A stretch of 64,000 bases of DNA from Candidatus Anderseniibacteriota bacterium (GTDB lineage: Bacteria > Patescibacteriota > Andersenbacteria > UBA10190): the NCBI GenBank assembly GCA_040900375.1, contig JBBDZC010000018.1:567-64566 (forward strand). Direction: 5' to 3'. A program made the position numbers and the translations under genes. The notes under the pieces were generated by a model. It saw nothing but the letters and a program-made list of their open reading frames with translations. It ran no database searches and was not told the origin of the DNA. This document shows, one piece after another, positions 8,701-57,997 of the stretch. Numbering within the stretch: position 1 is the first letter of the stretch; every line of letters begins with the position of its first letter.

Positions 8701-11700
8701 GACAGGGCTCCTCCCTAACCTCGAAATTGACAAGAGCGGCGGCACCCTCACGTTCACCGGCACGATCCGGACCGCTGTGGATTGGACATACACCGCTGGC
8801 ACACTCGACGCGACGACGAACGATTCGACGGTTATCTTTGGCGGGGCTTCGACGATCAACATCACTGGCTCGCACACGCTCGACAATGTGACTTTCGGCG
8901 ACAATTTCCAAGTGATCGTCAATATCGCTGATAACACGACGCTCACCATCGCCGGCACCCTCGCGCACACGAAGGCCCAAATCAATCAAACGACTGTCCC
9001 CGCCGCCGGGTCTCTTGCTGCGCAAGGCGATGTGACGGTTGGATCGGCTGCTCCCGGCGGGACTGCCGCCCTTACCTTCTCGGGAGGAAACGCGCAGACT
9101 TACACCGATAACGGCGGCACGAAGACGACAGGGACTGTTACTGTCAATAAGACGGCAGGGTCGGCCGTCACTCTCGCCACGGCCATGTCGTATACCGGCA
9201 CCGGCCAGGATCTCACCATTACCTCCGGCACGCTTGATCTCGCAGGTTTCAACCTCACCATCGCGGATGTCCTCACGGTCAACGGCGGCACCCTTACGGG
9301 GGAAACAGGCGCTGTTGATGTGAATGGCAGTGTCGTTTTGTCTTCCGGCACGCTCACCGCCCCCTCGGGCGCCTTCACTGTTGCCGGCGACTTCACCCAC
9401 AGTAGCGGCACCTTTACCCACAACTCTGGTACCCTCACCCTCGACGGCCCCGACCAAACCCTCGCGGGAGCCACCACCTTTCATAACTTAACCAAGACTG
9501 TCGCGACTGCTCGCACCTTAACCTTCCCGACTGGTTCAGCTAACAAGCAGACCATTGTGGGTACGCTGACCCTCCAAGGGGCATCAGGAGCCTTGCTCTC
9601 GCTGCGCTCGGCTTCCACCGGCACCCAGTGGCAGTTCGACCCTCAAGGCACCCGCACACTGTCCTTCTTAGACGTACAAGACAGCCACAATACCAATAGT
9701 ACGAGTATTGCCACGGCGGGCTTTAATATTACTGATAGTGGTAATAACACGGGCTGGTCGTTTAACCCTGAACCACCCTCTAACTTTGCGGGGACGGCCA
9801 TCTCCGGTACGGCCATCACCTGGACCTGGACGGATAACGCCACGGATGAAACGGGTTTCAAGCTCTTAGACGCGAGCGACACCGTAATTGCCACGATCAA
9901 CACTGCCAATGCGACTTCCTACACGGAAACCGGCCTCGCGGCTGGTACTGACTACAGTCGCAAACTGATTGCGTTCAATGGTGCTGGAGAATCAGCGGCC
10001 ACGAGTACAGTGACCGTCACCACGCTGACTTCACCTCCGACTGCCCCTGAACTGCGCTCACCGAGTAATGAAGCACTCTTAAACACCAATCTCCCCACGT
10101 TCTCCTGGAACAAGAGCACCGACAATGATGATGGGATGGCGACCTACACTCTCACTCTGGGCAGCCTGGTCCTCTCGGGGATTCCGGCGAGTGGCAGCAG
10201 TGCCTCTGACCCAGGGAGTAAAACCCACGTGGCTACCAGCTACACCGCCCAGTACTTTAATGAAAATGATGGCAATCCGGATAATGATTACATTGCCCTG
10301 ACGCTTAAAGACAGTGAGCGGGCGGATATCCCCCTTACTGACGGGGAACACTCGTGGTTCGTGACGGCGCACGATACGGCGGGGAACACCACCACCAGTG
10401 CCAGCCGCAGCTTCACGGTGGATACGCAGGCGCCCACGATTGGCAGTATCAGCTTTAGCCCGCCAGCGTTGTTGAGATCTGGCACCTACCGCTTACAGAG
10501 CGGCTCCCTGGCAGTCACCATCCCCCTCACCGATACCCAGGCCCTCCAGGAAGCCACCGTGACCTTTGCCCAGGCCCGCACGCTCTTTGGTCTCATCACC
10601 AGCTACACCACCCTCCAGAGTTCGACGTATGCCCTATCAGGGACTGCCCGGACGATCATCTTCGCTCCTCGGGAGGCCCTCACCGCGGGAGAGACGTACC
10701 GCATCAACATCACCGTCACTGATACCGCTGGGAACCGCAGGCTCCAGGACCTGACTCTCGTGGTGCTCACCCCCGAAGAGGCAGCCCGCGAGGCCGTTAT
10801 TGAACTCGATGCCGAGACGACGCCCATTGACATTATTATTGAGAAATTACGGGAGGCCTTACCGGATGCGCCCTTGAGTCTGCCGGATTTACAAGCGTCA
10901 GCGCTCCTGCGACGGGATCTGCAGGCCGAGCACTTCACCGCGTTCTGGCAGGGGTTACTAGGTAACCGCCTCATCGCCTGGGTACTCGATCACTTAGGTG
11001 GCTTTCCCCGTGCCCTCTTGGCAACTATTGATATCACCCAGAGCTTATGGGAGCGCTTATTGGCCCTCGCCATCCGGATAGCGGTGGCAGCCGGCACCAT
11101 GATTCGGGATACGAGCCTGGCGCTTGTCCATGGGGTCGTAGCAAGTGTTGATCGCGTCGCGCTCGAAACGACCACTGCCCAACGAATAGTCCGGCTACAG
11201 ACGGCCCGCGGGCTAGCACAGCTCGGCGCTCTCCTCGCCCAGCTGACGCCGACTCTTGGCGAACCGCTGCAGCAGGTGGGAGAAAGTTTAGCGCTGTCGC
11301 CGGATATAGGGATGGAGTATCGGGAGGAGCGCTTAACGACCCAGGCGCAGGTGAGTCGGATTAATACGCAATTACAGGCGGTGGGAAGCTTCTTCCGCGC
11401 CGGGTGGGAGACGGGTAGGGAGACGCGGGTGCGGACGGGACTCAAGAATCGGCAGGAATTGACACAAGGAACAGAACGGTTGCTGGGGCCGGTGGGGAGG
11501 TTGACAAAAACTCTGGCTCTTAAAACCCGAGCGACATACGAACTATGGCTGGATACTACCCCCACACATATTAGTAATGTCCGCGTGACCAAACTCACAC
11601 CGACGAGCGCGACCCTGGAATGGGATACTAACCACCTCGTCCGTTCCACTAAAGTTAACTACGGCACGACCACTAATTATAATCAGGAAGTTATTATCGA

Positions 11701-12100
11701 TGCTCTCGCTGATCACCATCGGGTCACTATCGCTAATCTTTTGCCTCGTACCACCTACTACTTTGAAGTTACTAATCAAGGCAGTAGAAACTATGTCTTC
11801 GACGCCTACTATACCTTAACCACACCCGCGCAGGATGAGCCAAGTCCACCGACGCCGCTGGCACCACAAGACGCCGTCGTTACTGCCAGCGAGCCGGTAT
11901 CGGTCTATGGTGAACCTGTGCCGACAGCCACCATAATTACAACACTATCTCCCGGCACTCGCCTGCGCGCACTCAATGAGCAGTTGGGGTGGATCTCGGT
12001 ACTATTGCCCAGTGGCCAAGAAGGCTGGCTGCAAGCGGATTATATTCAGTTGCAACTTCATGAGGGGGTGTCGGCTCAGTCTAACCACGATACTCTGTAG
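2702..12100 (+). CDS. Giant (3132 aa) cell-surface repeat protein / putative adhesin
   Basis: Single 9.4 kb ORF. The N-terminus has a hydrophobic signal/anchor (FLVSSLLAFLLSFSPIFPLITWYGIATTLSVIAATL). A Pro/Ser/Thr/Glu-rich linker follows, then MG/Ig-like segments. About 13 NHL-type repeats (YDSTNSRLFVADSGNSRVLVFDVTAITDGENAVNVLGQANFTSSG...) are arranged as two blocks, each preceded by ALGQYD(D/N). At least five ~145-aa Thr/Gly-rich repeats follow (TLTLTDGS.NQTTIPATGSIAAQG.ITQASTFDGGTGRLEITG...TFTGNATT.AGNLP..EIDKSGGTLTLTGTIRT). Two FN3-like segments (ISGTAITWTWTDNATDETGFKLL...; VRVTKLTPTSATLEWDTNH...YYFEVTN) and a C-terminal SH3b-like motif (TLSPGTRLRALNEQLGWISVLLPSGQEGWLQADYIQL) complete the architecture. 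Confidence 0.85.
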   Translation: MHPVWSYPFRHARLGRFLVSSLLAFLLSFSPIFPLITWYGIATTLSVIAATLAPTPSLLDDARDKPTPPSSLPVSPTPSPTVAEPLTTTVEHILTEVSEAVPAISLGDETNAPVHSQVVLPELRQQAELIHLPVTVVSAAELLVLPEPDVPATADLTFALKVELPRELVRRQGATAGAAPAIEAAAEAVLETPPLEELPTGSVPPSVAEILTPSPSPSPFDDVRGKPSPTPISSFTPLSELDGEANESFPAEPSPAPFDTPPVPSPSPLVRLWQFLTAHTPTVSAALFPPEEAPATAVAVTVTDPLGEPVTIIPVITEEAGQALVRIPQAPTQFRPGKYHLMVSVVEGDHVLQAEQDFTWGVLALNLNQSTYEPGETASIGMAVLDDAGHTLCDADLTLVITAPSGAVTTLSTAEQSITTSPTCVDQSVTDLPDYATSYTPQELGTYALKLTAVTANGTREMQQFFTVESEAPYIVSRQGSMRIFPLAAYTMKVTVTAAQDFRGKLTETVPGSFALSAATLTRSGTTERGNWSLDIHPDETTKRLVWDNVELSAGQSATLSYTYDAPDISPEFYLLGPLEVISSSGTDNDTPVWLEPRAWQIAADIITNGANAIDALGQYDDNLTTPGPIYTKGTGQDAPNRLGLNAPWSDPALDSVNNRLFVPDSSNNRVLVYNLNADDTLIDRIPDNVLGQANFYTNASATTQAGLSFPTGLAYDSTNQRLFVVDSDNSRVLVFDVTAITDGENAVNVLGQANFTSSGPATTQAGLNFPHKAAYDSTNSRLFVADSGNSRVLVFDVTAITNGENAVNILGKTSFTSSLPATTQSGMSDPIGVAYDSTNSRLFVAEEGNHRVTVFDVTAITDGENAVNVLGQANFTSAGSATTQSGMTSPRGVAYDSTNSRLFVPERGNHRVTVFDVTAITDGENAVNVLGQANFTSSSSATTQAGMSSPRGAAYDATNNLLFVTASGNHRITVYDVTAITDGENAVDALGQYDNSLSAPAPIYTKGSAHNAPNRLGMSVTQGGVIFDSTNDRLFVSDSGNDRVLVYNLNANDTLIDRIPDNVLGQANFYTNTGATTQAGLNTPLGLAYDSTNQRLFVTDASNNRVVIYDVTAITDGENAVNVLGQANFTTATAATTQAGMSSPRGVAYDSANQRLFVGDSTNNRVVVFDVTAITDGENAVNVLGQANFTSSGAATTQAGMNNPQGLAYDSTNSRLFVADSSNNRVTTFDVTAITDGENAANVLGQTSFTVSTAATTQAGMSTPSAAAYDSTNSRLFVSATGNDRVTTYNVASITNGESAVNVLGQANFTSSGEATTQAGMADPHGLAYDSTNSRLYVNDTNNDRIIVHDAADPTITWDGGGTDGTCGGGAGDGNKWSCAANWSGDVVPTSAHIATFDGTSTKNATIDANIDVYGIDINTGYTGTITQATGVTVTVGSGGYDQAAGTFTGSNSAIDINGAWALSGGAFTSTSGALSVSDAFTISGGTFTHNSGTVQFDTTAATITPSTASFNNVSFTSAVTKTIAASNTITIVGTLTLTDGSVSQTTIPATGSIAAQGDITQASTFDGGTGRLEITGTATQTFTGNATTTAGNLPDTEIDKSGGTLTLTGTIRTIGQGAGAWTYTTGTLDAGTSTVVMNGAMTITGSHTLNNVSLLTSGTRTIANNNTLTVTGTLTLTDGSINQTTIPATGSIAAQGNITQASTFDGGTGRLEITGSAAQTFTGNATTSAGNLPDLEIDKSAETLTLTGTIRTTGQGADAWTYTTGTLAAGTSTVVMDGAMTITGSHTLNNVSLLTSGTRTVASGTTLTIVGTLTLTDGQINTGTVAAQGNITQGSAFDGGTGRLEITGTATQTFTGNATTTAGSLSRVEINKSGGTLTLAGTIRTSGQGPDAWTYTAGTVAPGTSTVVFDGGTTVTGTQTFNNLVVQGFMTVADGNTLTVTGTLTLTSGTIVQTTIPATGSIAAQGDITQASTFGGGTGRLEITGSANQTFTGSAADSTGLLPNLEIDKSGGTLTFTGTIRTAVDWTYTAGTLDATTNDSTVIFGGASTINITGSHTLDNVTFGDNFQVIVNIADNTTLTIAGTLAHTKAQINQTTVPAAGSLAAQGDVTVGSAAPGGTAALTFSGGNAQTYTDNGGTKTTGTVTVNKTAGSAVTLATAMSYTGTGQDLTITSGTLDLAGFNLTIADVLTVNGGTLTGETGAVDVNGSVVLSSGTLTAPSGAFTVAGDFTHSSGTFTHNSGTLTLDGPDQTLAGATTFHNLTKTVATARTLTFPTGSANKQTIVGTLTLQGASGALLSLRSASTGTQWQFDPQGTRTLSFLDVQDSHNTNSTSIATAGFNITDSGNNTGWSFNPEPPSNFAGTAISGTAITWTWTDNATDETGFKLLDASDTVIATINTANATSYTETGLAAGTDYSRKLIAFNGAGESAATSTVTVTTLTSPPTAPELRSPSNEALLNTNLPTFSWNKSTDNDDGMATYTLTLGSLVLSGIPASGSSASDPGSKTHVATSYTAQYFNENDGNPDNDYIALTLKDSERADIPLTDGEHSWFVTAHDTAGNTTTSASRSFTVDTQAPTIGSISFSPPALLRSGTYRLQSGSLAVTIPLTDTQALQEATVTFAQARTLFGLITSYTTLQSSTYALSGTARTIIFAPREALTAGETYRINITVTDTAGNRRLQDLTLVVLTPEEAAREAVIELDAETTPIDIIIEKLREALPDAPLSLPDLQASALLRRDLQAEHFTAFWQGLLGNRLIAWVLDHLGGFPRALLATIDITQSLWERLLALAIRIAVAAGTMIRDTSLALVHGVVASVDRVALETTTAQRIVRLQTARGLAQLGALLAQLTPTLGEPLQQVGESLALSPDIGMEYREERLTTQAQVSRINTQLQAVGSFFRAGWETGRETRVRTGLKNRQELTQGTERLLGPVGRLTKTLALKTRATYELWLDTTPTHISNVRVTKLTPTSATLEWDTNHLVRSTKVNYGTTTNYNQEVIIDALADHHRVTIANLLPRTTYYFEVTNQGSRNYVFDAYYTLTTPAQDEPSPPTPLAPQDAVVTASEPVSVYGEPVPTATIITTLSPGTRLRALNEQLGWISVLLPSGQEGWLQADYIQLQLHEGVSAQSNHDTL
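4520..6770 (+). repeat. Intragenic tandem repeats (~180 nt, ~13 copies) encoding NHL/beta-propeller blades inside the giant gene
   Basis: DNA blocks such as gatgtgacggcgattaccgacggcgagaatgcggtgaatgtattgggccaagcgaatttt recur at about 4911, 5271, 5451, 6041, 6221, 6401 and elsewhere with few mismatches. The protein repeat is YDSTN.RLFV.D..N.RV.VFDVTAITDGENAVNVLGQANFTS...ATTQAGM. A higher-order duplication is marked by ALGQYD(D/N) at about 4550 and 5670. Confidence 0.8.
7250..8860 (+). repeat. Intragenic ~435-450 nt tandem repeats (4-5 copies) encoding Thr/Gly-rich beta-solenoid-like units
   Basis: Near-identical DNA segments: 7345-7432 versus 8574-8661 (~88 nt, 1 mismatch) and 7401-7480 versus 8215-8295 (~80 nt, 1 mismatch). 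More diverged copies lie near 7789 and 8100. Confidence 0.8.
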
Positions 12101-15682: not shown

Positions 15683-16822
15683 TTAATTTATACTCCCGAC
15701 TACAATTTCTGTGGCCTCGGGACGAGCGGGAACACTCTTCACCCAAAAAGGTGAGAATTGCACTTCCACTGACTCAACGCTCGGAAACTGTTGAAAATAC
15801 TCTTGCACCTCGGCGGCACTCCGACCGGCAAGGTTATCAGCGGAAAATAATGCTGGCCCCGCCTTACTGGCAAAGACGCCCGTTAGTGTTCCTTTAACAC
15901 GCGCTTCTCCCCGGGTAAAATCACTGCGCGTAATACTGACAGTAAATGATTCGGGTTTATACGACATAAATTCTTCATCGGGTTTTGGGGCCGAGCGCAG
16001 GGCGAGAAGAGTTAAACTCAACAGGTCGTTGTCATCAGGAAAAAAGCCGCGGGCTTTGATTTTTTTCTGCACAGTAAATTCAGTTGTTTTACTGCCGGCG
16101 GCGGCGGAAACACTCTCCTCCACTGTGGTCATAGTGACTAAATCTGGTCGGGTAAGCGCCCCCCCGGCCGCCGCCGTGAGTTCGCCCTCAATCCGCCCAC
16201 GCGCTTGTTTATCAACTTCTTCTTTGGCTCTGCTTATTTCTTCTTCGGTGAGCGGTGTCTCACCACTGACCCCACCACTGAAAGTAGTAGAGCTCTCGGC
16301 ATAGACGACCTTTTGCGCACTAGCGGGTAGCTTATCAATGATAAAGGTGCCGGGTGTGACGTTGCCGGGCAGTCCTTTTTCTTTCGCGGTCACGGCAACT
16401 GATACTTCCCCCAAGGGCGGAACAACCACAGCAGCATCAGTGAGAAAAAAGATGCCGGTGCCTTCGTGGCGTAAATGGGACTTTGGCAGCAGCCGCTGTT
16501 CTTCTGCCTGCTTATTAATTATTTTCACTGTGCCCCGCGCTAAGTCTTCAAATGTCTTTTGGCCCTCGCGCTTAAAAGTCTTAGTTTCCGTGACTTCCTT
16601 CTCCAGTAATTTGGCCGGCAAGATATAGCGGACAAAATCAGGTTCGTGACTAGTTTGCGACAAGGTAATTTCTTGCGTTACTTCCCGTTCATAGGTAGCG
16701 GGACGAACAATGATTGTTGCTTGCGGTAGGCGGGTATACGCCATACTAGCAAAAATCAGGCCAAGCAAAATTCCCGCGCTGGCGACTAGCGCCCGGCGAG
16801 GTATAGCAACGTGTGCAGGCAT
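15683..16822 (-). CDS. Hypothetical N-terminally membrane-anchored protein
   Basis: 379-aa ORF with an N-terminal transmembrane segment (ALVASAGILLGLIFASMAY) and no recognisable motif. Its ATG (16822-16820) lies inside the first terminal inverted repeat of the MITE-like element. Confidence 0.55.
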   Translation of the reverse strand: MPAHVAIPRRALVASAGILLGLIFASMAYTRLPQATIIVRPATYEREVTQEITLSQTSHEPDFVRYILPAKLLEKEVTETKTFKREGQKTFEDLARGTVKIINKQAEEQRLLPKSHLRHEGTGIFFLTDAAVVVPPLGEVSVAVTAKEKGLPGNVTPGTFIIDKLPASAQKVVYAESSTTFSGGVSGETPLTEEEISRAKEEVDKQARGRIEGELTAAAGGALTRPDLVTMTTVEESVSAAAGSKTTEFTVQKKIKARGFFPDDNDLLSLTLLALRSAPKPDEEFMSYKPESFTVSITRSDFTRGEARVKGTLTGVFASKAGPALFSADNLAGRSAAEVQEYFQQFPSVESVEVQFSPFWVKSVPARPEATEIVVGSIN

Positions 16823-18959: not shown

Positions 18960-19577
18960 CTAGAAATTTAAGGGAATGGCCGGCGAGGCCGCGGGAGTAG
19001 ATTCATCACTCGTACCCGCCACGTCAGCCTCGGGCGCTATCTCCTCCGACAAATCCCTGCCTTGGGCTTGGAGGGACTCGGTAATGAGAGCAAACTGTTC
19101 TTGAATTACCGCGTAGTGATCACGTTTACTTTCTAGTTCCTGGAGAACCGTTTGCACGGCGGCTCGTGCCTCACGCACTGGAGTGCGCATGGCAACTAAT
19201 AGCTCTACCGGCATAACCTCCAGCTGCTGTTGCATTTGCTTGGCACTGTCATCTAACAGCCGGGCCCGCCCGAGCAGCTCCTGGGCGGGGGGGTTTTCCG
19301 AGTCTAATAGCTGCTGCAAAGCCTCGGCATCCTCTTTAACGTACATGACTGCAATTTTCATCCGCTCTTCTTCGTCTCTGATAATGAAGCGTTCCGCCTC
19401 GCGTTTCCACTCGGTCGCTTGCAGCTTGAGCCGGGCCAGGGTTTCGGGTTGGCGGGCTAGGTTAAGAAGTGCTGTCGGGGCCCCCGCTAGACGTTCGGGG
19501 TGAACGGCTACCTCCAGCACTCCTGTGGCTATCGCGGCCGCGACGAGTAGGCCGAAGATAATGATCATTTTAACCAT
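18960..19577 (-). CDS. Hypothetical membrane-anchored coiled-coil protein
   Basis: 205 aa. N-terminal transmembrane segment (MVKMIIIFGLLVAAAIATGVL) followed by a charged, helical, Gln/Glu/Arg-rich region. No family assigned. Confidence 0.5.
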   Translation of the reverse strand: MVKMIIIFGLLVAAAIATGVLEVAVHPERLAGAPTALLNLARQPETLARLKLQATEWKREAERFIIRDEEERMKIAVMYVKEDAEALQQLLDSENPPAQELLGRARLLDDSAKQMQQQLEVMPVELLVAMRTPVREARAAVQTVLQELESKRDHYAVIQEQFALITESLQAQGRDLSEEIAPEADVAGTSDESTPAASPAIPLNF

Positions 19578-22745: not shown

Positions 22746-24041
22746 TTACTTACGGACGGCGGGCGTCGCCCGCAGCAACGACAGAGCATCACCGACCATG
22801 TAGAGCGAGCCGGTAATGAGCATCATGCTGTCAGGTTTTATCAGCTTGCGGCCCACGGCTAGGGCGTGGGCAAGGGCAGGAATTTCCTGAACATGGGGGT
22901 GATGCGCTCGCAAAGCGCGAGCGACTACGCTGGTATCTTCCGGCTCATAACTACCTTGGGTAACGATTACCTGATCAAACAAAGGGGCAATATCTGTTTC
23001 CAGGCCTAACTGCTTGCCCTTCTTCTGGGCTACAATGAGAACATCAGGGTGCGGCAGCGGCATAGTTTTTAAGAAAGCGGCTAGTGCCTGCACGCCATCA
23101 TTATTGTGCGCTCCGTCTACCAAAATAAAGGGCTTACGGGAGACAATATCGAGCCGGCCTTCCCACACTGCCTGGCTTAGGCCGCGGGTCAGATGAGTGG
23201 GAGTGAGGACAAAGCCCTGGTCACGCAAGAGATGTAGCGTAAGCAACGCGGTGCAGGCATTGGTAATTTGGTGCTGACCCAAAAGCTTGATAAAGAACGT
23301 GTCGGTGATGGTCCCGGTAGTTGTAAATGTTTGTCCAGCTAACGAGGCGTGCGACTCTTTGACCGTAAGATGTTCGCCCACAGAATAGAAAGGTGCTTGT
23401 TGCTGCTGGCAGACGCCGGCAAAGTATTGCAGCAGTGCTGGTTGTGTCTCGGCAGTCACTACCGGTTGCCCCCTTTTAATAATCCCGGCTTTATTAGCAG
23501 CAATCGCCGCCTTATCCTCGCCAATCTCGGGCACATGGTCCAGGCCGATATTGGTAATAACAGCAACCAGCGGCGTAATGACATTGGTTGCATCAAGTGC
23601 TCCGCCCATGCCAACTTCAATAATGGCAATATCAACGCGGGCGCGGGCAAACTGTAAGAAAGTCAGAGCGGTCGTAAACTCAAAAAAAGTTATGGTTAGG
23701 TCGTAAGCGGCAATTTGAGAACGAACATGGGCGATTAAAGCAATTAACGCTTCATCGGTAATCGCTTGACCGTCGACCCGGATGCGTTCATTGAACTGGT
23801 AGAGATGCGGGCTGGTATACAGACCGACTTTATAGCCAGCAGCGCGCAAGGTTGATTCTAAGAAACTGGCAGTACTGCCTTTTCCGTTGGTGCCAGTTAT
23901 ATGGACACTGGGAAAAGAGGTCTGGGGATTGCCGAGGATAGCGCACAGCTTAGTCATGACCTCGAGGCCCAGCTTAATGCCGAAACGCTCGAGGTCGTAA
24001 ATGTACGCTAGCTGTTCATTGAGAGGGGCGGCTTGTGGCAT
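22746..24041 (-). CDS. folC: Folylpolyglutamate synthase / dihydrofolate synthase (Mur ligase family)
   Basis: YIYDLERFGIKLGLEVMTKLCAILGNP...HITGTNGKGSTASFLESTLRAAGYKVGLYTSPHL, typical of FolC. 431 aa. Confidence 0.8.
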   Translation of the reverse strand: MPQAAPLNEQLAYIYDLERFGIKLGLEVMTKLCAILGNPQTSFPSVHITGTNGKGSTASFLESTLRAAGYKVGLYTSPHLYQFNERIRVDGQAITDEALIALIAHVRSQIAAYDLTITFFEFTTALTFLQFARARVDIAIIEVGMGGALDATNVITPLVAVITNIGLDHVPEIGEDKAAIAANKAGIIKRGQPVVTAETQPALLQYFAGVCQQQQAPFYSVGEHLTVKESHASLAGQTFTTTGTITDTFFIKLLGQHQITNACTALLTLHLLRDQGFVLTPTHLTRGLSQAVWEGRLDIVSRKPFILVDGAHNNDGVQALAAFLKTMPLPHPDVLIVAQKKGKQLGLETDIAPLFDQVIVTQGSYEPEDTSVVARALRAHHPHVQEIPALAHALAVGRKLIKPDSMMLITGSLYMVGDALSLLRATPAVRK

Positions 24042-24110: not shown

Positions 24111-25826
24111 ATGAAATACCCTCTCCCCCGCGACAGTTTTGCCCCGCCCTTTGCGCCAGATGCTTATACCCCTGCAGAAAAGTGGCAACTGGTCCCCTTT
24201 TTTTCTAATCTTGATCAGTCAGTATATGCGCCGCTCATTTTTTCCCCGGAAGTTATCGGCGCTTTATGTTCCCGCGCCAGCCGCGCCGAAGATGACTTGA
24301 GGACCATATTCTTGCGTGAATATGTGGCACCGTTTCTCGAGCCCGAGACAGCTGCTACCGAAGCGGCTGCTCATCATGGTAAAAGCCTCAAGGAATTCAT
24401 TAATTTTCTCCAGGCTTACCCCATTGAGGAAATTTTTTCCAATCCGCGGGCACGGTCATTCTACGCCAAGTGGCTGGCTCAATATGGTGATGATTCGATC
24501 GCCCAGATGGCGGGTATGCATCTCGTTTTTGCCTCGCTCTCGCAAGTTGCGATTAAACATTTCGAAGATCAACGAATTGGCTTAGCCCCGATTGAAAAAT
24601 CGACGCGCTATGTTGATTACTCAACTAAAATCAATGGCCGTTGGCGCTACTATACTGATCCCACTCTCCGAGAATTAGGCTTGGAGCAAGCGTATGAGAC
24701 CGCCATGGATGGTTTGTTTACAACCTACGGACAGCTCCTGCCCCGGCTCATAAGGTGGCTAAGTGAACGCTTCCCGGAGGAAAAACGGTCAGTGGTGGAA
24801 AAGAAGGCTTTTGATGTCTTGCGGGGCTTGCTACCAACCTCGACCCTTTCTCAAGTGGCCTTTTTCGGCAATGGCCAAGCTTACGAATATCTTGTCAGCC
24901 GCTCGGGACACCATCCCTTGGGAGAAATCCGCTGGGCTAGCGAACGTGCATATGAAGAACTGTATAAAGTTGCCCCTTCATTCTTACGCCGCATTAAAGA
25001 TCCTGAGAGTCAAGCACTCGTCAACTCATACCAAGAATATTTAAGCGGCAAGGGCGAGCGCTTGCGGCCTTTGGTGGATAGATTTACGGCTGCCCACCAA
25101 AAAGTAGCGCAGCAAACAAAGGAAGAGACTTCAGTTAAGCTCTTAGAGTACGACCTGGAGGGCGAAGCAAAAGTGATTACCGGCATGCTTTATGCTGCCC
25201 CGAATAATCATGCCAGTTGGTCGGATATATTTTCTCGAGTACGCGCGCTTAACGAGAGTGAGCGGCAGGTAGTCCTGAATGCTTACTTTATCGGCCGCAC
25301 GCAACGTTGGCAAAAGGTTGGGCGCGCCCTCGAAAATATCTTTGTCCGCTTTGAAATCATGATGAATATTGGTGCCTGGCGTGATTTACACCGTCATCGC
25401 ATGCTCACCCAGCAACGGCAGTACTTTTCCTGTATGCATGGATATGACGTGCCGCCAGAGCTGATGAGCGCGGGCCTAGCGGATGAGTTTACAGAGGCAA
25501 TAGAACGGGTGGAGCGCGTGCATCAACACATCGCCGAATACGACCTGGACCTGGCCCAGTATGCGGTGACCATGGCCCACCGGGTACGATTCATGCAGTG
25601 GACTAACTTGCGGGAATGTTTCTGGGAGATTGAGTTACGCACGATTCCCGAGGGGCATCCGGACTACCGGAGAATCGAGCAAGAGAAATTTCGTTTGCTC
25701 CAGAAAGTTTATCCCCTGCTGGCAGAGCGCATGCATGTCAATTTAGACGAGTATAACTTTGCCCGCCGCGGTCAGGAAGAAAAAATCCAGGCTAAGCTCA
25801 AAGAGTTGACCAAGGTTAACGCCTGA
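24111..25826 (+). CDS. thyX: FAD-dependent thymidylate synthase, tandem two-domain ThyX type
   Basis: The C-terminal half carries WRDLHRHRML (RHR motif) and MQWTNLRECFWEIELRT (ThyX NLR...WEI block). The N-terminal half aligns to the same fold (HLVFASLSQVAIKHFEDQRIG...STRYVDYS) but lacks the RHR motif. At 571 aa it matches known duplicated ThyX proteins. Confidence 0.6.
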   Translation: MKYPLPRDSFAPPFAPDAYTPAEKWQLVPFFSNLDQSVYAPLIFSPEVIGALCSRASRAEDDLRTIFLREYVAPFLEPETAATEAAAHHGKSLKEFINFLQAYPIEEIFSNPRARSFYAKWLAQYGDDSIAQMAGMHLVFASLSQVAIKHFEDQRIGLAPIEKSTRYVDYSTKINGRWRYYTDPTLRELGLEQAYETAMDGLFTTYGQLLPRLIRWLSERFPEEKRSVVEKKAFDVLRGLLPTSTLSQVAFFGNGQAYEYLVSRSGHHPLGEIRWASERAYEELYKVAPSFLRRIKDPESQALVNSYQEYLSGKGERLRPLVDRFTAAHQKVAQQTKEETSVKLLEYDLEGEAKVITGMLYAAPNNHASWSDIFSRVRALNESERQVVLNAYFIGRTQRWQKVGRALENIFVRFEIMMNIGAWRDLHRHRMLTQQRQYFSCMHGYDVPPELMSAGLADEFTEAIERVERVHQHIAEYDLDLAQYAVTMAHRVRFMQWTNLRECFWEIELRTIPEGHPDYRRIEQEKFRLLQKVYPLLAERMHVNLDEYNFARRGQEEKIQAKLKELTKVNA

Positions 25827-27319: not shown

Positions 27320-27895
27320 ATGATTTTGTCTGACCGTGATATCAAAGCCGCGCTTAAGTCCGGGAAAATTGTGGTGAAGCCAAAACCCAACTTGGTCATT
27401 CAACTCGGCACCTCGAGTCTTGATCTGCGCCTCGGGTACCATTTTCGTGTCTTTAAGCATCGCCGCAAGCCTTTTATTGACCCTTTGGATCCCGACACGA
27501 TGACGGGAATGACCGAGGAAGTTAAAATCAGCCGGGCGCAACCTTACGTTATCCAACCGGATGAATTTGTCTTAGCTTCAGTTTTGGAATGGATAGAATT
27601 ACCAGACAACATCTCGGCGCGGATTGATGGTCGTAGCAGTCTGGGTCGTATTGGTCTAGTGATCCATTCTACGGCAGGCCATATTGATGCTGGCTTTCAG
27701 GGTTCAATTACGATGGAATTAAGCAATATTGGCATGATGCCAATATTGCTCTATCCCAAAATGCGCATTTGCCAATTAGTATTTGAGCCACTATCTTCAG
27801 CCGCCGAGCGACCTTATACCCAAAAACCCGGCGCCAAGTACGCGGGTAAGACCAGACCGGCCGAGGCAGCATTAGCACAAGAAATCGTTGAATGA
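27320..27895 (+). CDS. dcd: dCTP deaminase
   Basis: MILSDRDIKAALKSGKIVVKP...SSLDLRLG...RSSLGRIGL, the Dcd/dUTPase-fold signature. 191 aa. Confidence 0.9.
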   Translation: MILSDRDIKAALKSGKIVVKPKPNLVIQLGTSSLDLRLGYHFRVFKHRRKPFIDPLDPDTMTGMTEEVKISRAQPYVIQPDEFVLASVLEWIELPDNISARIDGRSSLGRIGLVIHSTAGHIDAGFQGSITMELSNIGMMPILLYPKMRICQLVFEPLSSAAERPYTQKPGAKYAGKTRPAEAALAQEIVE

Positions 27896-28314
27896 TTAAG
27901 TTCAGGGTGAAAAAACTGGCCCCGGGTGCGAAACTGCCGACAAAACATATTGCCACAGATGCGGGCATTGACATTTATACTAACGAATCAAAAACTTTAA
28001 AACCAAGTGAAACCTACCTTTTTTCCACGGGTATTGCTGTCGAGTTTTCCCCGGGATATGTGGCTTTGCTCTGGGATCGCTCTGGATTAGGTAGTAAAGG
28101 CATTCACCGTTTAGCTGGAGTAATTGACTCGGGCTACCGCGGCGAATGGAAAGTGGTGCTGCTCAATACCACTAAAAAATCTTTTACCATTCATAAAGGC
28201 GACAAAATTGTGCAGTGTATCATGCAAAAATTTGAGCCTGTAAAAATTATGGAAGTCAAAAAATTGCGGCTCACCAAGCGCGGCAGTAAAGGTTTTGGCA
28301 GCTCGGGGCGCTAG
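27892..28314 (+). CDS. dut: dUTP diphosphatase
   Basis: AGIDIYT...IDSGYRGEWKVVLLNTTKKSFTIHKGDKIVQ (dUTPase motifs 3-4). Overlaps the dcd stop by 4 nt. Confidence 0.9.
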   Translation: MIKFRVKKLAPGAKLPTKHIATDAGIDIYTNESKTLKPSETYLFSTGIAVEFSPGYVALLWDRSGLGSKGIHRLAGVIDSGYRGEWKVVLLNTTKKSFTIHKGDKIVQCIMQKFEPVKIMEVKKLRLTKRGSKGFGSSGR

Positions 28315-28337: not shown

Positions 28338-28358
28338 AGCCACGGCCTTTGAGGCCGT
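28338..28358. terminator. Hairpin between convergent dut and the DNPH1-like gene
   Basis: ccacggcc-tttga-ggccgtgg: an 8-bp perfect stem inside a 50-bp convergent gap. Confidence 0.5.
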
Positions 28359-28364
28359 GGAGCT

Positions 28365-28736
28365 TCACAAAAGTTGCTTGAGTATGAGGATAATATGCTC
28401 TTCGGTAATATAGGGATGGATTGCCTTAGTCACAAACTGGATCGCGGGGGAGGCTTCTTCAGCGCCTTCATAAAACGCGATGACTTCCTTGCCTGCCGCA
28501 TTCGCCCACCCAAGCTCAATGCCGCTTCCCGTAGAAGCAATGGAAACCTCAGCAATAACGAGGTCGCAGCTGGCTATATCCTGCTTAGTGATGTGAAGTT
28601 CCTCCTTCTTCTCGCGGGGATGGATTAACTCTACCCGGCCTTTCTCTTCAGCCGCGAATTGCTCCAGCGCATTGAAAAAGATGGGAGTGTGGCGGTGACC
28701 GCCGGAGGGGTGGGAAATAAACCACTTTGACATCAC
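28365..28736 (-). CDS. DNPH1/Rcl-like 2'-deoxynucleoside 5'-phosphate N-hydrolase (nucleoside 2-deoxyribosyltransferase fold)
   Basis: CDLVIAEVSIASTGSGIELGWANAAGKEVIAFYE aligns with the Rcl/DNPH1 core DVVVAEVT.PSLGVGYELG.A.ALGKPIL, including the catalytic Glu of the ELG motif. N-terminal WFISHPSGGHR compares with YFCGSIRGGR. 123 aa. Confidence 0.6.
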   Translation of the reverse strand: MMSKWFISHPSGGHRHTPIFFNALEQFAAEEKGRVELIHPREKKEELHITKQDIASCDLVIAEVSIASTGSGIELGWANAAGKEVIAFYEGAEEASPAIQFVTKAIHPYITEEHIILILKQLL

Positions 28737-28785: not shown

Positions 28786-29454
28786 CTAACTGGCGATGAG
28801 CCGAGGTTTAACATACTGCCAGACTTCTTCATGAAGATCTTCACGTGTTCGCTCTTGGCCCTGGCCATCGACACCGGCAATTGTAATCCAACCCTGTACC
28901 GCAGCAACTTTAAGATAGGCTGCCCGGATCGCGGTCAGTTTTTCTTTGGTCTCGAAGAAATCTTTATTCTTTTCCTTCAAGCGCCGCAGTGAGACAGCCA
29001 CAGGGGTATCAAGAAAAAGAACTAGGTCGGGTTGCGGCAGAGTGGGTTGACCCGTAAAGCAGAGCCACCAAATCCAATCATACATTTCTTGCCACTCCTG
29101 GCCGCGTAACCCCATGGTCTGGTACGCAAACGCGCTGGTACAAAAACGGTCCGAGACAACGAGCTGGCGGCCCGATTTTTCACTGGTGTGAGCAGTGATG
29201 TCCTCGGCACGCGAGAAGAAATCCTGAATGTATAACAACGCCTGCTCCCGGCGAGAGAAGGGTTTTTTATTCTTATGGAGCAGGAACTTATCGTAGATCA
29301 GGCGCCCGGTTGCCCGATCTTCTTGGGGAAAATGGAGCGAGAGCGGCTGATATTTTTCTTGCTGGAGGCGGCGCACGAGCCAGTCCGTCTGGGTTTGGCT
29401 ACCGCCCGCATCCAGGGCTTCAATAACGATGAAGGGAGAAGGTCGCTTAGGCAT
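28786..29454 (-). CDS. Thymidylate kinase-family paralog with degenerate Walker A (Lys replaced)
   Basis: Tmk fold is indicated by FIVIEALDAGGSQTQ (consensus IVIEGLDGSGKSTQ) and VVSDRFCTSAFAYQ (DRY..S.AYQ). The P-loop Lys and Ser/Thr are replaced (GGSQT). The gene overlaps the upstream tmk stop by 8 nt. Confidence 0.55.
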   Translation of the reverse strand: MPKRPSPFIVIEALDAGGSQTQTDWLVRRLQQEKYQPLSLHFPQEDRATGRLIYDKFLLHKNKKPFSRREQALLYIQDFFSRAEDITAHTSEKSGRQLVVSDRFCTSAFAYQTMGLRGQEWQEMYDWIWWLCFTGQPTLPQPDLVLFLDTPVAVSLRRLKEKNKDFFETKEKLTAIRAAYLKVAAVQGWITIAGVDGQGQERTREDLHEEVWQYVKPRLIAS

Positions 29455-30175
29455 AGGCTTGGAGTAACTGCGGAAATTTAAGACGCAGGTTTTCCCAAAC
29501 TAATTCTGCCACGTCATCAACGTTCAATAGCTCCTCTCCCTCCACACAGAGGATCCGGAGAAACCGCGCGGGATCTTGCTGGCACAGGAGATCATATTCA
29601 TTGTAGAGTCGTTGTTGAATTTCCAGGTGATCGGTATACTCATCCTTGTCTTGCATCTTTTCTTTTCGTTTCTCTAAAAGACCAACAGAGATCTCGGGCA
29701 GTATATCTAAAAAAAGTGAAATGTGTTCCAAGGGCATCTGTTGCTCTTGATATTCATAGCGGCTAACAGCGGCTTGAATTTTATCCCGAAAGAGTTCGGT
29801 TTCCTGCACGTCCAATCCCTCAATGGTCATAAAGGCAATACTGCTGGCTACGTACCGATCATAGATGACTATTTCTCCTAATTTGAGGGCCTGTAGAACT
29901 TCTGCGCGGTGCTCGGCACGATTGTGTGCAAATAGGCGCATTTTTTCCGGCCACGGTATCGCCTGCCAGCGCCCATCTTTATTCTGGAGCTTTTGCTTTA
30001 ATTTTTGGCCGCTGGAAGTGGTATAATCGGGACTTTCAAAATGATGAACAACGTGCCCCATAAATCGCAGGCGCCGGAGGAGATGCTGAACCTGGGTATG
30101 CTTGCCGGACGAATCAAGGCCATCAAAAGCAATCAGCAGGCCAGTGGGTTTAGGCGCAGGACACATACATTCCAC
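29447..30175 (-). CDS. tmk: Thymidylate (dTMP) kinase
   Basis: LIAFDGLDSSGKHTQ (intact Walker A), IYDRYVASSIAFM (DRY motif), and a LID-like LEKRKEKMQDKDEYTDHLE segment. The true start is probably an internal Met (MCPAPK...). Confidence 0.7.
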   Translation of the reverse strand: MECMCPAPKPTGLLIAFDGLDSSGKHTQVQHLLRRLRFMGHVVHHFESPDYTTSSGQKLKQKLQNKDGRWQAIPWPEKMRLFAHNRAEHRAEVLQALKLGEIVIYDRYVASSIAFMTIEGLDVQETELFRDKIQAAVSRYEYQEQQMPLEHISLFLDILPEISVGLLEKRKEKMQDKDEYTDHLEIQQRLYNEYDLLCQQDPARFLRILCVEGEELLNVDDVAELVWENLRLKFPQLLQAYA

Positions 30176-39448: not shown

Positions 39449-40663
39449 GTGACGCCGTCGAATGGGTCAGCTTACTTAGAAAGCCTCACTAGTCGCCGTA
39501 GTATACTCGGGGGAAGCCTTATATGCTACGACTACATGCTTAAGCTCTTCCATGTTTTTCTGCTCGTGCTGGCGATTGGCCTGGTTGTACAAAGCACACT
39601 TTGGAAAAATATTGATGTTCTAGATGCGGAAGAATGGATGAGTGCTACTGTCTTCCTCTACCAAGGTGACGCGCGGGTCTTTAATAAATTTACTTATGGT
39701 TATCCCGGCACGCCGCTGCTGCTGCTGGCGGGAGCGATCCATGTTGTTTTGGCTATTCCGCTAACGACAAGTTTTACTGGCAGCCTGGCCACCCTTATTT
39801 CCCTTTCGGCCGCGGGGATTGCGGCTACCTGCAAATTGCTGCGGCCGAGGAGTTTATGGTGGATAGCGGCTACGGGTATTATTCTCTGTAACCGTCTCTA
39901 TGCGGCCGTGACTCCCCCCTCGGCAGCGGTCGCTCCCCTGATTGTTCTTATTTTTTTGTTGTCCCTTTATATCTACGAGCAGCGCAGTCAGTCACTGCGC
40001 GTACACATTATGCTCGGGATTAGTTTAGGTGTTGGCGCGGCGCTGCGTCTGGACATTACCGCGGCAGTTGGTTTCTTACTGCTGATTTTTCTGCTGCCAA
40101 GTCTCGGAGGGAAAAGAATCGGGGTGATTGTCAGTACTGCGTTTCTCTCTTTTTTCTTGCTCAATCCCTTCCTGTGGTTTACGCCCCTTGGTCACCTGCA
40201 GGCGATTATCGCTAAAATACACTACCACTGGGCTGATTATGAGACAGAGCGCTTGACGATACCTCTTTTCCTTAACCGGGCAGCTGTTGGCTTACTGGGG
40301 TTCAGCTTGGCTGTAGTACTACTTTTCCTACGGCAACGCCTGCCTCTCCTCATTTCCCGAAAATTCCTCCTCTACACAGTTTTTGTTACTATCAGCATAA
40401 GCATTATCCTATGGCAAGCGAGTTATCAAGTACCGTGGTATTTTTATCCCCTAATTTTTTTCTGGGAAGCCCTTTTGTCTCTTTTTCTTCTCGATTTAGC
40501 CGCCTTAGTTCACTATCCTTTCTTGACTTCCCTGCGAGCCCAGCAATTACTGCGACAATCAGTCCAAATCAGTGTGATCATTCTCCTCGTCGGGGCGCAA
40601 GTTCTCCTGCTGCTTACCGAACATTTTCTTCCCGAGGGTATTTACTTGCTCTCTCTTCCCTAA
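39449..40663 (+). CDS. GT-C fold membrane glycosyltransferase (PMT/ArnT, GT39/GT83-like)
   Basis: 404 aa with about 10 predicted transmembrane helices. First periplasmic-loop motif DAEEWMSATVFLYQGDARVFNKFTYGYPGTPLLLL matches the PMT/ArnT DE..Y...A.....G.......KPPL signature. The true start may be the internal Met (MLKLFHVFLL). Confidence 0.55.
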   Translation: MTPSNGSAYLESLTSRRSILGGSLICYDYMLKLFHVFLLVLAIGLVVQSTLWKNIDVLDAEEWMSATVFLYQGDARVFNKFTYGYPGTPLLLLAGAIHVVLAIPLTTSFTGSLATLISLSAAGIAATCKLLRPRSLWWIAATGIILCNRLYAAVTPPSAAVAPLIVLIFLLSLYIYEQRSQSLRVHIMLGISLGVGAALRLDITAAVGFLLLIFLLPSLGGKRIGVIVSTAFLSFFLLNPFLWFTPLGHLQAIIAKIHYHWADYETERLTIPLFLNRAAVGLLGFSLAVVLLFLRQRLPLLISRKFLLYTVFVTISISIILWQASYQVPWYFYPLIFFWEALLSLFLLDLAALVHYPFLTSLRAQQLLRQSVQISVIILLVGAQVLLLLTEHFLPEGIYLLSLP

Positions 40664-57382: not shown

Positions 57383-57997
57383 CTAGAGACTATTCGGGGG
57401 CAGATTCGGGCGACTACCTTGTAAGGCTTCCGGTGGAAAGTTGAGCGTAGCTTGAAAACTGTAGTTGATTGTCGTCACAGTTCCGTCAGGTGATGCAGTT
57501 TCATTACGGGCAATAGAAGCTAGATCAACAGCTGTAAACATTGTTTTTCGTGTAGGACTTGTGGTCAGACTAGCCAGAGTTTGCGCCACTTCATCAATAT
57601 TAGGGGTATTGCCGCTGACGATCAGTTGGCCTTCCCGAGTCGTCATTTCTAGATCAATCAATACCGTGGGCGCGGGTAAGAGTCGTTCAATTTCTTGCAA
57701 GAGAGGCAGCGGGCTCACGTGCGTGGCCAGCAGTTCCTCAAGAGCATCAATTCGTTCTTCAAACAACGTGATGCGAGTGACATCATCACCAGCTTCGATG
57801 ATTCTTCGCTCTAACCCCTGTAACTGGGCCTGGGATCGAGTTAAGGCTCTAGCAGCACTGGACTGGAGTCCCGCGAGGATACCCCACATGACTACCAGCA
57901 GCACGACAATGCCAATGGATAAACTAAACAATGCTCGCCGGCGCCGGCGAATGGACGCTAGGTAGGCTGTGCCTGGAGCTAAATTAATCGTTGCCAT
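57383..57997 (-). CDS. pilN: PilN-like pilus assembly protein
   Basis: 204 aa: short basic cytoplasmic N-terminus (INLAPG..RRRRRALF), a single transmembrane segment, and a periplasmic domain. Immediately downstream of pilM. Confidence 0.6.
   Translation of the reverse strand: MATINLAPGTAYLASIRRRRRALFSLSIGIVVLLVVMWGILAGLQSSAARALTRSQAQLQGLERRIIEAGDDVTRITLFEERIDALEELLATHVSPLPLLQEIERLLPAPTVLIDLEMTTREGQLIVSGNTPNIDEVAQTLASLTTSPTRKTMFTAVDLASIARNETASPDGTVTTINYSFQATLNFPPEALQGSRPNLPPNSL

Follow-up and report, generated by a model that had tools for sequence, protein, structure and literature searches.

A small protein of the nucleoside 2'-deoxyribosyltransferase superfamily beside the Tmk-like genes of a Candidatus Andersenbacteria thymidylate island: a putative nucleoside monophosphate N-glycosidase

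The gene and its product

Bacteria of the candidate phyla radiation (CPR), or Patescibacteria, are to our knowledge unable to make nucleotides de novo, and the way in which they obtain, balance and clean the precursors of their deoxynucleoside triphosphates (dNTPs) is central to their symbiotic lifestyle. Here, a stretch of 64,000 nucleotides from a Candidatus Anderseniibacteriota bacterium (contig JBBDZC010000018.1, positions 567 to 64,566), referred to as the window, was analysed around a small gene, the target, which encodes a protein of the nucleoside 2'-deoxyribosyltransferase (NDT) superfamily. The gene order at the locus is folC, a double ThyX gene, glyA, dcd, dut, the target, two Tmk-like genes (tmkB and tmkA), and then rplA-rplK-nusG-secE-gyrB. 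The locus is a compact thymidylate island (dcd-dut, thyX or thyA plus folA, glyA, folC, tmkA and tmkB) with two unexplained parts, namely a Tmk paralogue without the P-loop lysine and the NDT-superfamily protein, which combines Phe, Thr and Glu with an invariant His and is found in about half of the lineages. Our preferred reading, with a probability of roughly 0.45, is that the target is a nucleoside or deoxynucleoside monophosphate, (d)NMP, N-glycosidase that would act through a covalent intermediate on Glu74 and would serve near Tmk in an auxiliary role, either policing the nucleotide pool or in salvage.

The target and the parts of it on which the argument depends are listed below; residue positions are given throughout in the numbering of the 123-aa form.

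28365..28736, minus strand: target, open reading frame (ORF) of the NDT superfamily, 'WF' subfamily; 123 aa from GTG 28736, 122 aa from ATG 28733
28698..28724, minus strand: beta1 and the following loop, W5-F6-I7-S8-H9-P10-S11-G12-G13, the subfamily signature
28617..28619, minus strand: Pro40, invariant, after beta2
28587..28589, minus strand: Thr50, in the general-acid column
28509..28550, minus strand: core motif E63-V-S-I-A-S68-T-G-S-G-I-E74-L-G76, with Ser68 predicted to bind phosphate and Glu74 predicted to be the covalent nucleophile
28449..28451, minus strand: Ser96, invariant
28410..28412, minus strand: Tyr109 on beta5, invariant (151/152 broad-family members)

The first-pass annotation of this DNA had described a reading frame of 123 aa at 28365-28736, adjoining dut and tmk in a compact bacterium, and these points were borne out: the frame lies on the minus strand with a GTG start and an ATG one codon in, dut is convergent with it, a Tmk-like gene stands directly upstream on the same strand, and the host is a reduced CPR bacterium. 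The peptide quoted there, CDLVIAEVS..GSGIELGWANAAGKEVIAF, comprises residues 57-89, and the codons of Glu74 (28515-28517), Phe6 (28719-28721) and His9 (28710-28712) were checked by eye in the raw sequence. The 122-aa product of the ATG start matches, at 100% identity, a Candidatus Andersenbacteria protein deposited as 'MAG: nucleoside 2-deoxyribosyltransferase'.

The target is a genuine gene under purifying selection and not a chance ORF, because it has many homologues, a confident AlphaFold2 model and far fewer non-synonymous than synonymous differences. With a threshold of E ≤ 1e-3, a word-indexed search returned 55 homologues, and a profile run against 1.84 billion representatives yielded 1231 matches, of which 381 fell at or below 1e-10. 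The model reached a predicted local distance difference test score (pLDDT) of 95.2 and a predicted template modelling score (pTM) of 0.89. In comparison with eleven orthologues, the non-synonymous difference per site (pN) was 0.19-0.38 and the synonymous one (pS) 0.69-0.90, the widest ranges being 0.19-0.42 for pN and 0.65-0.90 for pS; synonymous sites are saturated, which makes a dN/dS ratio incomputable, and selection was judged from pN against pS.

Superfamily placement and active-site residues

On the basis of the predicted structure, the target can be placed with confidence in the NDT superfamily, as its model has the five-stranded alpha/beta (flavodoxin-like) fold common to NDT, DNPH1 and MilB. 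Comparison of the model with the PDB by Foldseek gave 94 matches at E ≤ 1e-3, and all 50 of the matches listed were DNPH1/Rcl, MilB or BcmB (probability 1.00, TM 0.65-0.77, identity 17-23%), with TM 0.70-0.77 for the top ones. Within the superfamily, more discriminating comparisons favour the monophosphate hydrolases. The best match of the single sequence in the PDB was the CMP N-glycosidase BcmB (E 2.6e-4), with Rcl/DNPH1 and MilB next. A profile of 33 family members matched Rcl/DNPH1 at E 2.6e-8 to 7.5e-8, BcmB at 2.6e-5 and MilB at 0.01, against 0.008-0.3 for the true transferases, and hhalign with a 204-sequence profile assigned a probability of 97.8% (E 1.2e-12) to DNPH1 versus 69% (E 4.4e-5) to the NDT of L. 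leichmannii (LlNDT). The relationship to DNPH1/Rcl that the first-pass annotation had proposed is therefore upheld at the level of the superfamily, DNPH1/Rcl being the best profile match (E 2.6e-8). An enzyme of the LOG/PpnN type was also considered and was rejected, since neither the Pfam nor the fold search backs it.

Family names are a poorer guide. The sole Pfam match of the target is PF05014 ('Nuc_deoxyrib_tr'), which scores 29.3 bits against a cut-off of 28.8 and covers residues 51-94 alone, and most relatives score below the threshold (P0052 28.1, P0061 21.4, P0043 26.9 and P0049 15.3 bits). The NCBIfam search with the target returned no matching family, and PHROGs gave a weak match named 'nucleoside deoxyribosyltransferase' (E 0.0018). 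PF05014 also matches human DNPH1 (66.8 bits) and LlNDT (77.3 bits), so its name cannot separate a hydrolase from a transferase. A best hidden Markov model (HMM) match to a transferase, which the first-pass annotation had regarded as telling against a hydrolase, does not discriminate, human DNPH1 matching the same model.

Taken at its word, the public label would make the target a true nucleoside 2'-deoxyribosyltransferase with unphosphorylated deoxynucleosides as its substrates. Some members of the family are recorded under that name at NCBI and JGI, and the sole Pfam and PHROG matches carry it too; the name stems from PF05014 and would thus be shared with DNPH1. The target has in common with the solved transferases (LlNDT, 1f8x; LhPDT, 1s2d; TbPDT, 2a0k) the superfamily, the predicted covalent-Glu chemistry and a Pro (Pro42 of LlNDT, Pro40 here). 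However, Tyr7, Asp72, Asp92 and Asn123' of LlNDT are all replaced, by Phe6, Thr50, Ser68 and Ser96, the C-terminal Tyr carboxylate tail is absent, and the profile matches to these enzymes are the weak ones given above. Ser96 was placed through DNPH1 S128, as its direct alignment to LlNDT Asn123 is unreliable. A transferase of this kind is very unlikely, and the label deserves a warning in annotation, since it is contradicted by the residue evidence and fits even less well than DNPH1. The PDB chain 4hx9 differs from LlNDT by D92G/V93T/N123S/F13R, and the corresponding residues of the target are S68-T69 and S96; we take 4hx9 to be an engineered phosphate-accepting NDT variant.

The correspondences below rest on HMMER and hhalign (local and global) alignments, with the DNPH1 and LlNDT sequences confirmed against PDB chains.

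Target Glu74: DNPH1 E104, LlNDT E98; nucleophile
Target Ser68: DNPH1 S98, LlNDT D92; phosphate ligand in DNPH1, 5'-OH binder in NDT
Target Ser96: DNPH1 S128'; phosphate ligand given by the partner subunit
Target Phe6: DNPH1 Y24, LlNDT Y7; column of the triad Tyr
Target Thr50: DNPH1 D80, LlNDT D72 and the MilB Asp; general-acid column
Target His9: DNPH1 G27; a His that is invariant in the family
Target Pro40/Arg41: DNPH1 E55/H56; Pro40 with LlNDT Pro42, MilB having Pro too

In DNPH1, the catalytic triad is Y24/D80/E104, with D80 as the proposed general acid, and the phosphate is held by S98 and S128'; the leaving base is stabilised by H56, and water is proposed to be activated by E55 (PMC10603095). 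Tyr and Glu are joined by a very short hydrogen bond, and exchange of the Tyr for Phe in rat Rcl lowers kcat/KM 280-fold (PMC10483697).

Conservation was counted over 52 close and 152 broad family members. Column 74, which lies in the superfamily motif G-x-E-L/I-G after beta3, holds Glu in 50/52 close members (Asp in 2) and in 150/152 broad ones, and Ser68, Ser96, His9, Pro40 and Tyr109 are essentially invariant. Phe occupies column 6 in each of the 50 subfamily members that have this column. At the position of Asp80, the close members have Thr (43) or Arg (9) and none has Asp; the broad family has Ser or Thr there, with Asp in 2/152, and the residue that follows is Lys or Arg in most family members. 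Position 41, which is Arg in the target, is His in 28/52 close and 128/152 broad members. By these conserved columns the target family is a distinct branch with its own predicted active-site solution, and not the outcome of random losses. Because Glu74 and both phosphate serines are kept, the ligand is likely a nucleoside 5'-monophosphate. The first-pass annotation had credited the protein with the DNPH1/Rcl core including the ELG glutamate, and had seen a failure of the catalytic residues to align as evidence to the contrary. The core stands for Glu74 (E104), Ser68 and Ser96 and falls at Phe6, Thr50 and Pro40/Arg41, so that of the triad Glu104 finds its counterpart while Tyr24 and Asp80 do not.

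Compared with DNPH1/Rcl (PDB 4fyh, 8qhr, 8os9), the target has the same fold, the same order of secondary structures and the nucleophile Glu in the same x-G-x-E-L-G setting, in addition to the aligned phosphate ligands and the best profile match. It differs by Phe6, Thr50, Pro40/Arg41 and His9 in place of Tyr24, Asp80, E55/H56 and Gly27, with an identity of 17-22%; it is about 25 residues shorter and lacks the 'shielding loop' between beta2 and the next helix; and it is bacterial, optional, and located beside Tmk in an operon-like array. Judged by the residues that define the DNPH1 family, the target is neither a member of that family nor a DNPH1 orthologue. A true functional equivalent of the animal enzyme, that is, a 2'-deoxy-specific 5-hydroxymethyl-dUMP/dNMP hydrolase as the first-pass annotation had suggested, would agree with the profile match, with the retained nucleophile and serines, with a neighbourhood made up wholly of deoxynucleotide genes, and with the thymidylate synthases as a conceivable source of hydroxymethyl-dUMP. 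We nevertheless hold it to be improbable, because Tyr24, Asp80 and E55/H56 are replaced and the identity is low, because the Tyr that enforces deoxy specificity in the superfamily is absent, and because the Tyr-bearing sister family described below is the one that is unlinked to thymidylate genes.

Other characterised relatives share different parts of the predicted site. MilB, BcmB and BlsM, which are CMP and hydroxymethyl-CMP N-glycosidases (PDB 4jem, 4jen, 5vto), share with the target Phe at the Tyr position within F-x-x-x-P, the Pro that follows beta2, and two core-motif residues, Ser and Glu; MilB-type genes are likewise linked to genes of the thymidylate synthase family (PMC4081090). On the other hand, the base-stacking Phe22 and the hydroxymethyl-reading Arg23 of MilB correspond to Ser11 and Gly12, and the MilB/BcmB motif F-L-(G/A)-(G/A)-P-F-(R/K) agrees with F-I-S-H-P-S-G of the target in its first Phe and its Pro alone. 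MilB also keeps an Asp (Asp78, which contacts ribose and base), and the Asp of its 'LDHDEI' falls on Thr50 (phmmer, 4jem). MilB is partnered by a CMP hydroxymethylase of an antibiotic cluster, whereas the partners of the target are the housekeeping ThyX or ThyA plus dihydrofolate reductase (DHFR).

The phage enzyme DmtZ (NAR 2026) hydrolyses dAMP and transfers deoxyribose-5-phosphate to a base, with the triad Tyr6/Asn77/Glu103 (PMC12884076). Compared by description and fold matches only, it is similar to the target in belonging to the NDT family, in its 5'-monophosphate substrate, its dut-type neighbour, its non-Asp residue (Asn77) and its Pro after beta2; it differs in keeping an essential Tyr6, in its purine (dAMP/Z) specificity and in being phage-encoded within a Z-genome pathway. 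The BFVD fold matches of the target include proteins of the Gordonia phages Ghobes and Archimedes, members of the phage group for which DmtZ has been reported. The Archaeoglobus veneficus N-ribosyltransferase (AvNRT) has a natural Phe at the Tyr position as well, but it acts on nucleosides, whose 5'-OH is bound by Asp79 and Asn113, retains the general acid Asp62 and is a tetramer (PMC7308715).

The WF subfamily and the thymidylate island

The subfamily of the target is named after its signature, W-F-x-S-H-P-S-G ... T-P-x-F-F, and belongs to a broad family of about 120 aa in which beta1 reads I-Y-x-x-H, with Tyr in 122/152 members. All 12 distinct genome or metagenome loci with a WF gene (L001/L010, L003, L004, L006/L011, L008, L009, L012-L016) lie inside a thymidylate island, beside dut/dcd or glyA/thyX(A), and the gene directly follows tmkB wherever upstream sequence exists. 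The linkage holds despite a rearranged gene order (L003) and despite ThyA plus DHFR in place of ThyX (L008 and the P0049 contigs). The I-Y sister family (e.g. P0052, P0061), found mostly in CPR bacteria, has the same length, fold, His9, Pro40, Ser/Thr50, core motif, Ser96 and Tyr109, but it has Tyr and not Phe, a beta1 loop of the form H-S-S-x-F-D..E-L-Y-x-P-L, and no thymidylate linkage: at least 30 of its loci are unlinked to thymidylate genes, the exceptions being Tmk near L026 and L040, Dut near L045 and GlyA near L030. The WF signature correlates perfectly with the context of the thymidylate island.

Some further members of the broad family were observed. A Phe-type protein with K-I-F-I-S-H (L103, 3540..3989) lies 1.5 kb from a lysine-containing Tmk on a contig that also carries dcd, which hints that Phe-type members have been drawn to thymidylate genes more than once. 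Fusions (P0060, P0071, P0128) include an N-terminal domain of about 220 aa that looks peptidase S51-like by eye, a C-terminal domain resembling S-adenosylmethionine-dependent methyltransferases, and a tandem NDT-like pair whose second domain has the motif G-L-G-Y-E-I. On a Thermodesulfobacteriota contig (L041, 7453..8273 and ~11874), three paralogues occur within about 4.5 kb.

TmkB, the product of the gene directly upstream, has EALDAGGSQT (29392..29421) in its P-loop where GxGK(S/T)T is expected and is therefore without the lysine, whose position is taken by Ser or Gly in 10/10 aligned orthologues and at least 21 metagenome loci. It keeps the DR(F/Y/W) motif, and the lysine-less TmkB is always partnered by a canonical TmkA, the tmkA stop overlapping the tmkB start. 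Possible explanations are that TmkB is a pseudokinase, that it serves as a heterodimer partner, or that it is an enzyme working without ATP.

The distribution of the WF gene was assessed by searching metagenome contigs with TmkB and inspecting the region downstream. Directly downstream of a lysine-less tmkB, the WF gene was present in 11 islands and missing from at least 10. In eight loci without it, tmkB lies within 11 bp of dut; the lysine-less P-loop was read in five of these, and the P-loop pattern gave no reading in the other three. A relaxed HMM search of the larger tmkB-dut gaps found no cryptic WF copy, and the small ORFs located there are unrelated. As the identities to the TmkB of the window interleave between islands with and without the WF gene, repeated gain or loss of the gene is implied. 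It is thus accessory, being absent from about half of otherwise identical islands, and is dispensable for dTTP synthesis. The existence of lysine-less TmkB in islands without the WF gene also makes TmkB independent of the target, and an obligate TmkB-target pair was rejected on the strength of these islands (at least 10, with no cryptic copy). In two loci (L059, 4174..4422; L062, 1147..1416), the tmkB-dut slot is filled by a short hydrophobic, membrane-like ORF of about 80-90 aa that is unrelated to NDT.

One WF copy in the usual synteny (L016, 8001..8363) has W-Q-V-S-N in place of the signature (Phe to Gln, His to Asn) and G-I-D-L-G in the core motif (Glu to Asp), with Ser68, Ser96 and Tyr109 kept; this could reflect a relaxed constraint on the pocket or a changed substrate. 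Such drift, together with the replacement of two triad residues by Phe6 and Thr50, a neighbouring TmkB whose missing lysine suggests that altered enzymes abound at the locus, and the dispensability of the gene in about half of the islands, would suit a nucleotide-binding protein with little or no catalytic activity, for instance a sensor or a partner of the Tmk pair in which the phosphate pocket is kept. We consider this unlikely. Across 200 sequences, hardly any variation is seen in Glu74 (Asp in a few), G-I-E-L-G, His9 and Tyr109, which is the pattern of an active site and more than that of a binding site; the natural Phe-bearing relatives MilB, BcmB and AvNRT are active, as is DmtZ with Asn at the Asp position (PMC12884076); and the occurrence of TmkB without the target gene means that no obligate complex is needed.

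The neighbours of the target within the island are as follows.

22746..24041, minus strand: folC-like gene, Mur-ligase-family protein (folylpolyglutamate synthase type)
24111..25826, plus strand: double-domain ThyX-like flavin-dependent thymidylate synthase, 571 aa
25911..27266, plus strand: glyA, serine hydroxymethyltransferase
27320..27895, plus strand: dcd, dCTP deaminase
27892..28314, plus strand: dut, dUTPase, convergent with the target
28340..28360, no strand: GC-rich, perfect 9-bp hairpin in the 50-nt gap between dut and the target
28786..29454, minus strand: tmkB, Tmk-like paralogue directly upstream of the target
29447..30175, minus strand: tmkA, Tmk-like, with the canonical P-loop DSSGKHT

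The hairpin was spotted by eye and then folded separately (-20.2 kcal/mol, z -2.26), and it is possibly a terminator acting in both directions. A scan for consensus promoters and terminators found such sites no more often than in shuffled sequence and did not flag the hairpin, because it has no clean T-run. Given the overlap of tmkA and tmkB and the hairpin in the gap between dut and the target, the target would most simply be the last gene of a tmkA-tmkB-target transcript. The double ThyX contains two Thy1 stretches and scores 24 bits against the NCBIfam thyX cut-off of 87.9. In a sister lineage (L008, 2404..3267), ThyA and DHFR fill the slot of the double ThyX, and in L004 (1931..4136) DHFR adjoins the double ThyX, an enzyme type that in principle needs no DHFR.

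Candidate reactions and the wider window

According to the preferred reading, the target would be a small, probably dimeric enzyme that binds a nucleoside 5'-monophosphate and cleaves its N-glycosidic bond, forming a covalent ester between the sugar-phosphate and Glu74. The 5'-phosphate would be held by Ser68 and by Ser96, which probably comes from the partner subunit; the assisting Tyr and Asp of DNPH1 and the transferases are replaced by Phe6 and Thr50, and His9, joined in most relatives by the His after Pro40, would be a candidate for stabilising the leaving base. A pyrimidine monophosphate unfit for Tmk would in this way be removed, or its sugar-phosphate re-used. The auxiliary character of this gate-keeping or salvage is suggested by the fact that the gene goes with tmkA-tmkB in the thymidylate island and yet is optional. 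Cleansing of the deoxynucleoside monophosphate pool near Tmk, one of the two uses envisaged in the first pass, is plausible and fits the accessory distribution. Phe6 argues against a strict 2'-deoxy preference (PMC4081090, PMC7308715). The other use, a catabolic entry yielding deoxyribose-5-phosphate, found no support: neither deoC nor deoB, nor tdk, ribonucleotide reductase or similar genes, was detected among the scanned ORFs of the 64-kb window.

Several observations weigh against the preferred reading. Of the DNPH1 triad the Glu alone is kept, while the loss of the Tyr costs 280-fold in kcat/KM in rat Rcl and D80 is the proposed general acid. The target has Arg41 where most relatives carry the His that aligns with DNPH1 H56, the drift of the L016 copy hints at relaxed constraint on the pocket, and the Pfam score is marginal with no NCBIfam model. 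Phe6, which goes with ribose in MilB/BcmB, AvNRT and TbPDT-Y5F, also fits an all-deoxy neighbourhood poorly.

The last point bears on the identity of the substrate, since, of the features that set a 2'-deoxy or ribo preference in the NDT superfamily, the Tyr/Phe position is the one best documented. MilB and BcmB, which have Phe, prefer CMP, and the MilB F17Y exchange reverses the preference to dCMP (PMC4081090). AvNRT with its Phe7 acts on ribonucleosides only, and TbPDT gains acceptance of ribonucleosides by Y5F (PMC7308715), while the Tyr of DmtZ is described as excluding ribosylated substrates (PMC12884076). The invariant Phe6 therefore predicts, as far as these analogies reach, that the target tolerates or prefers a sugar with a 2'-OH. 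Context and residue are in conflict here, the former indicating deoxy and the latter ribo. Of the ribo substrates, 5-methyl-UMP would be a sensible candidate beside Tmk and ThyX; of the deoxy ones, 5-hydroxymethyl-dUMP, dUMP and 5-methyl-dCMP would be.

Hydrolysis is ranked first, with base transfer as its main rival. In the latter case the target would be a base-exchange phospho(deoxy)ribosyltransferase, in which the sugar-5-phosphate bound to Glu74 is passed to a free pyrimidine (thymine or uracil) and not to water, so that dTMP, dUMP or a ribo analogue would be made directly for Tmk/ThyX without thymidine phosphorylase/kinase or phosphoribosyl pyrophosphate (PRPP). DmtZ, which is encoded beside a dut-like gene and has Asn77 at the Asp position, is a natural precedent that both hydrolyses dAMP and transfers deoxyribose-5-phosphate (PMC12884076), and the Ghobes and Archimedes proteins are among the fold matches. 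The phosphate-binding serines are kept, the water-activating E55 of DNPH1 has given way to the invariant Pro40, aligned with Pro42 of LlNDT, and the slot right after the Tmk genes would suit a salvage step that produces dTMP. Pro40 had been taken as a transferase hallmark, Pro being said to exclude water, but this argument was downgraded, as the pure hydrolase MilB has Pro in the same column; moreover, P57A in DmtZ left the balance of transfer and hydrolysis unshifted (PMC12884076). DmtZ also keeps the Tyr that the target has lost, the profile of the target is much closer to hydrolases than to transferases, and a base-supplying gene was not found among the scanned ORFs of the window. Base exchange is therefore unlikely on present evidence. 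The wider proposal, that the WF subfamily as a whole is a cellular nucleotide:base sugar-phosphate transferase like DmtZ, which in these auxotrophic CPR bacteria would load scavenged thymine or uracil onto the sugar-phosphate of another (d)NMP for Tmk/ThyX without PRPP, thymidine phosphorylase or thymidine kinase and maybe together with the lysine-less TmkB, is one that we regard as slightly less probable still.

If the target is active, the chemistry of DNPH1, MilB and DmtZ would be extended to a triad that lacks both Tyr and Asp, and the gene would represent a PRPP-independent step of salvage or else a new step in sanitising the pool. The lysine-less Tmk neighbour and the testable questions of Phe versus Tyr and hydrolase versus transferase add to the interest of the locus.

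Outside the island, the window is an ordinary segment of a CPR chromosome, which also encodes DnaE, ThrRS, MiaA, GatB, GatA, LigA, iPGM, PheST and type IV pilus genes. No Pfam match at E ≤ 1e-5 was obtained for four ORFs of 204-404 aa (15683..16822, minus strand; 18960..19577, minus strand; 39449..40663, plus strand; 57383..57997, minus strand). A 3132-aa ORF (2702..12100, plus strand) with NHL repeats, a lactonase-like beta-propeller and fn3, Big_13 and SH3_3 domains encodes one of the giant surface proteins that are typical of CPR bacteria, and a similar protein of 3331 aa flanks the island in L003.

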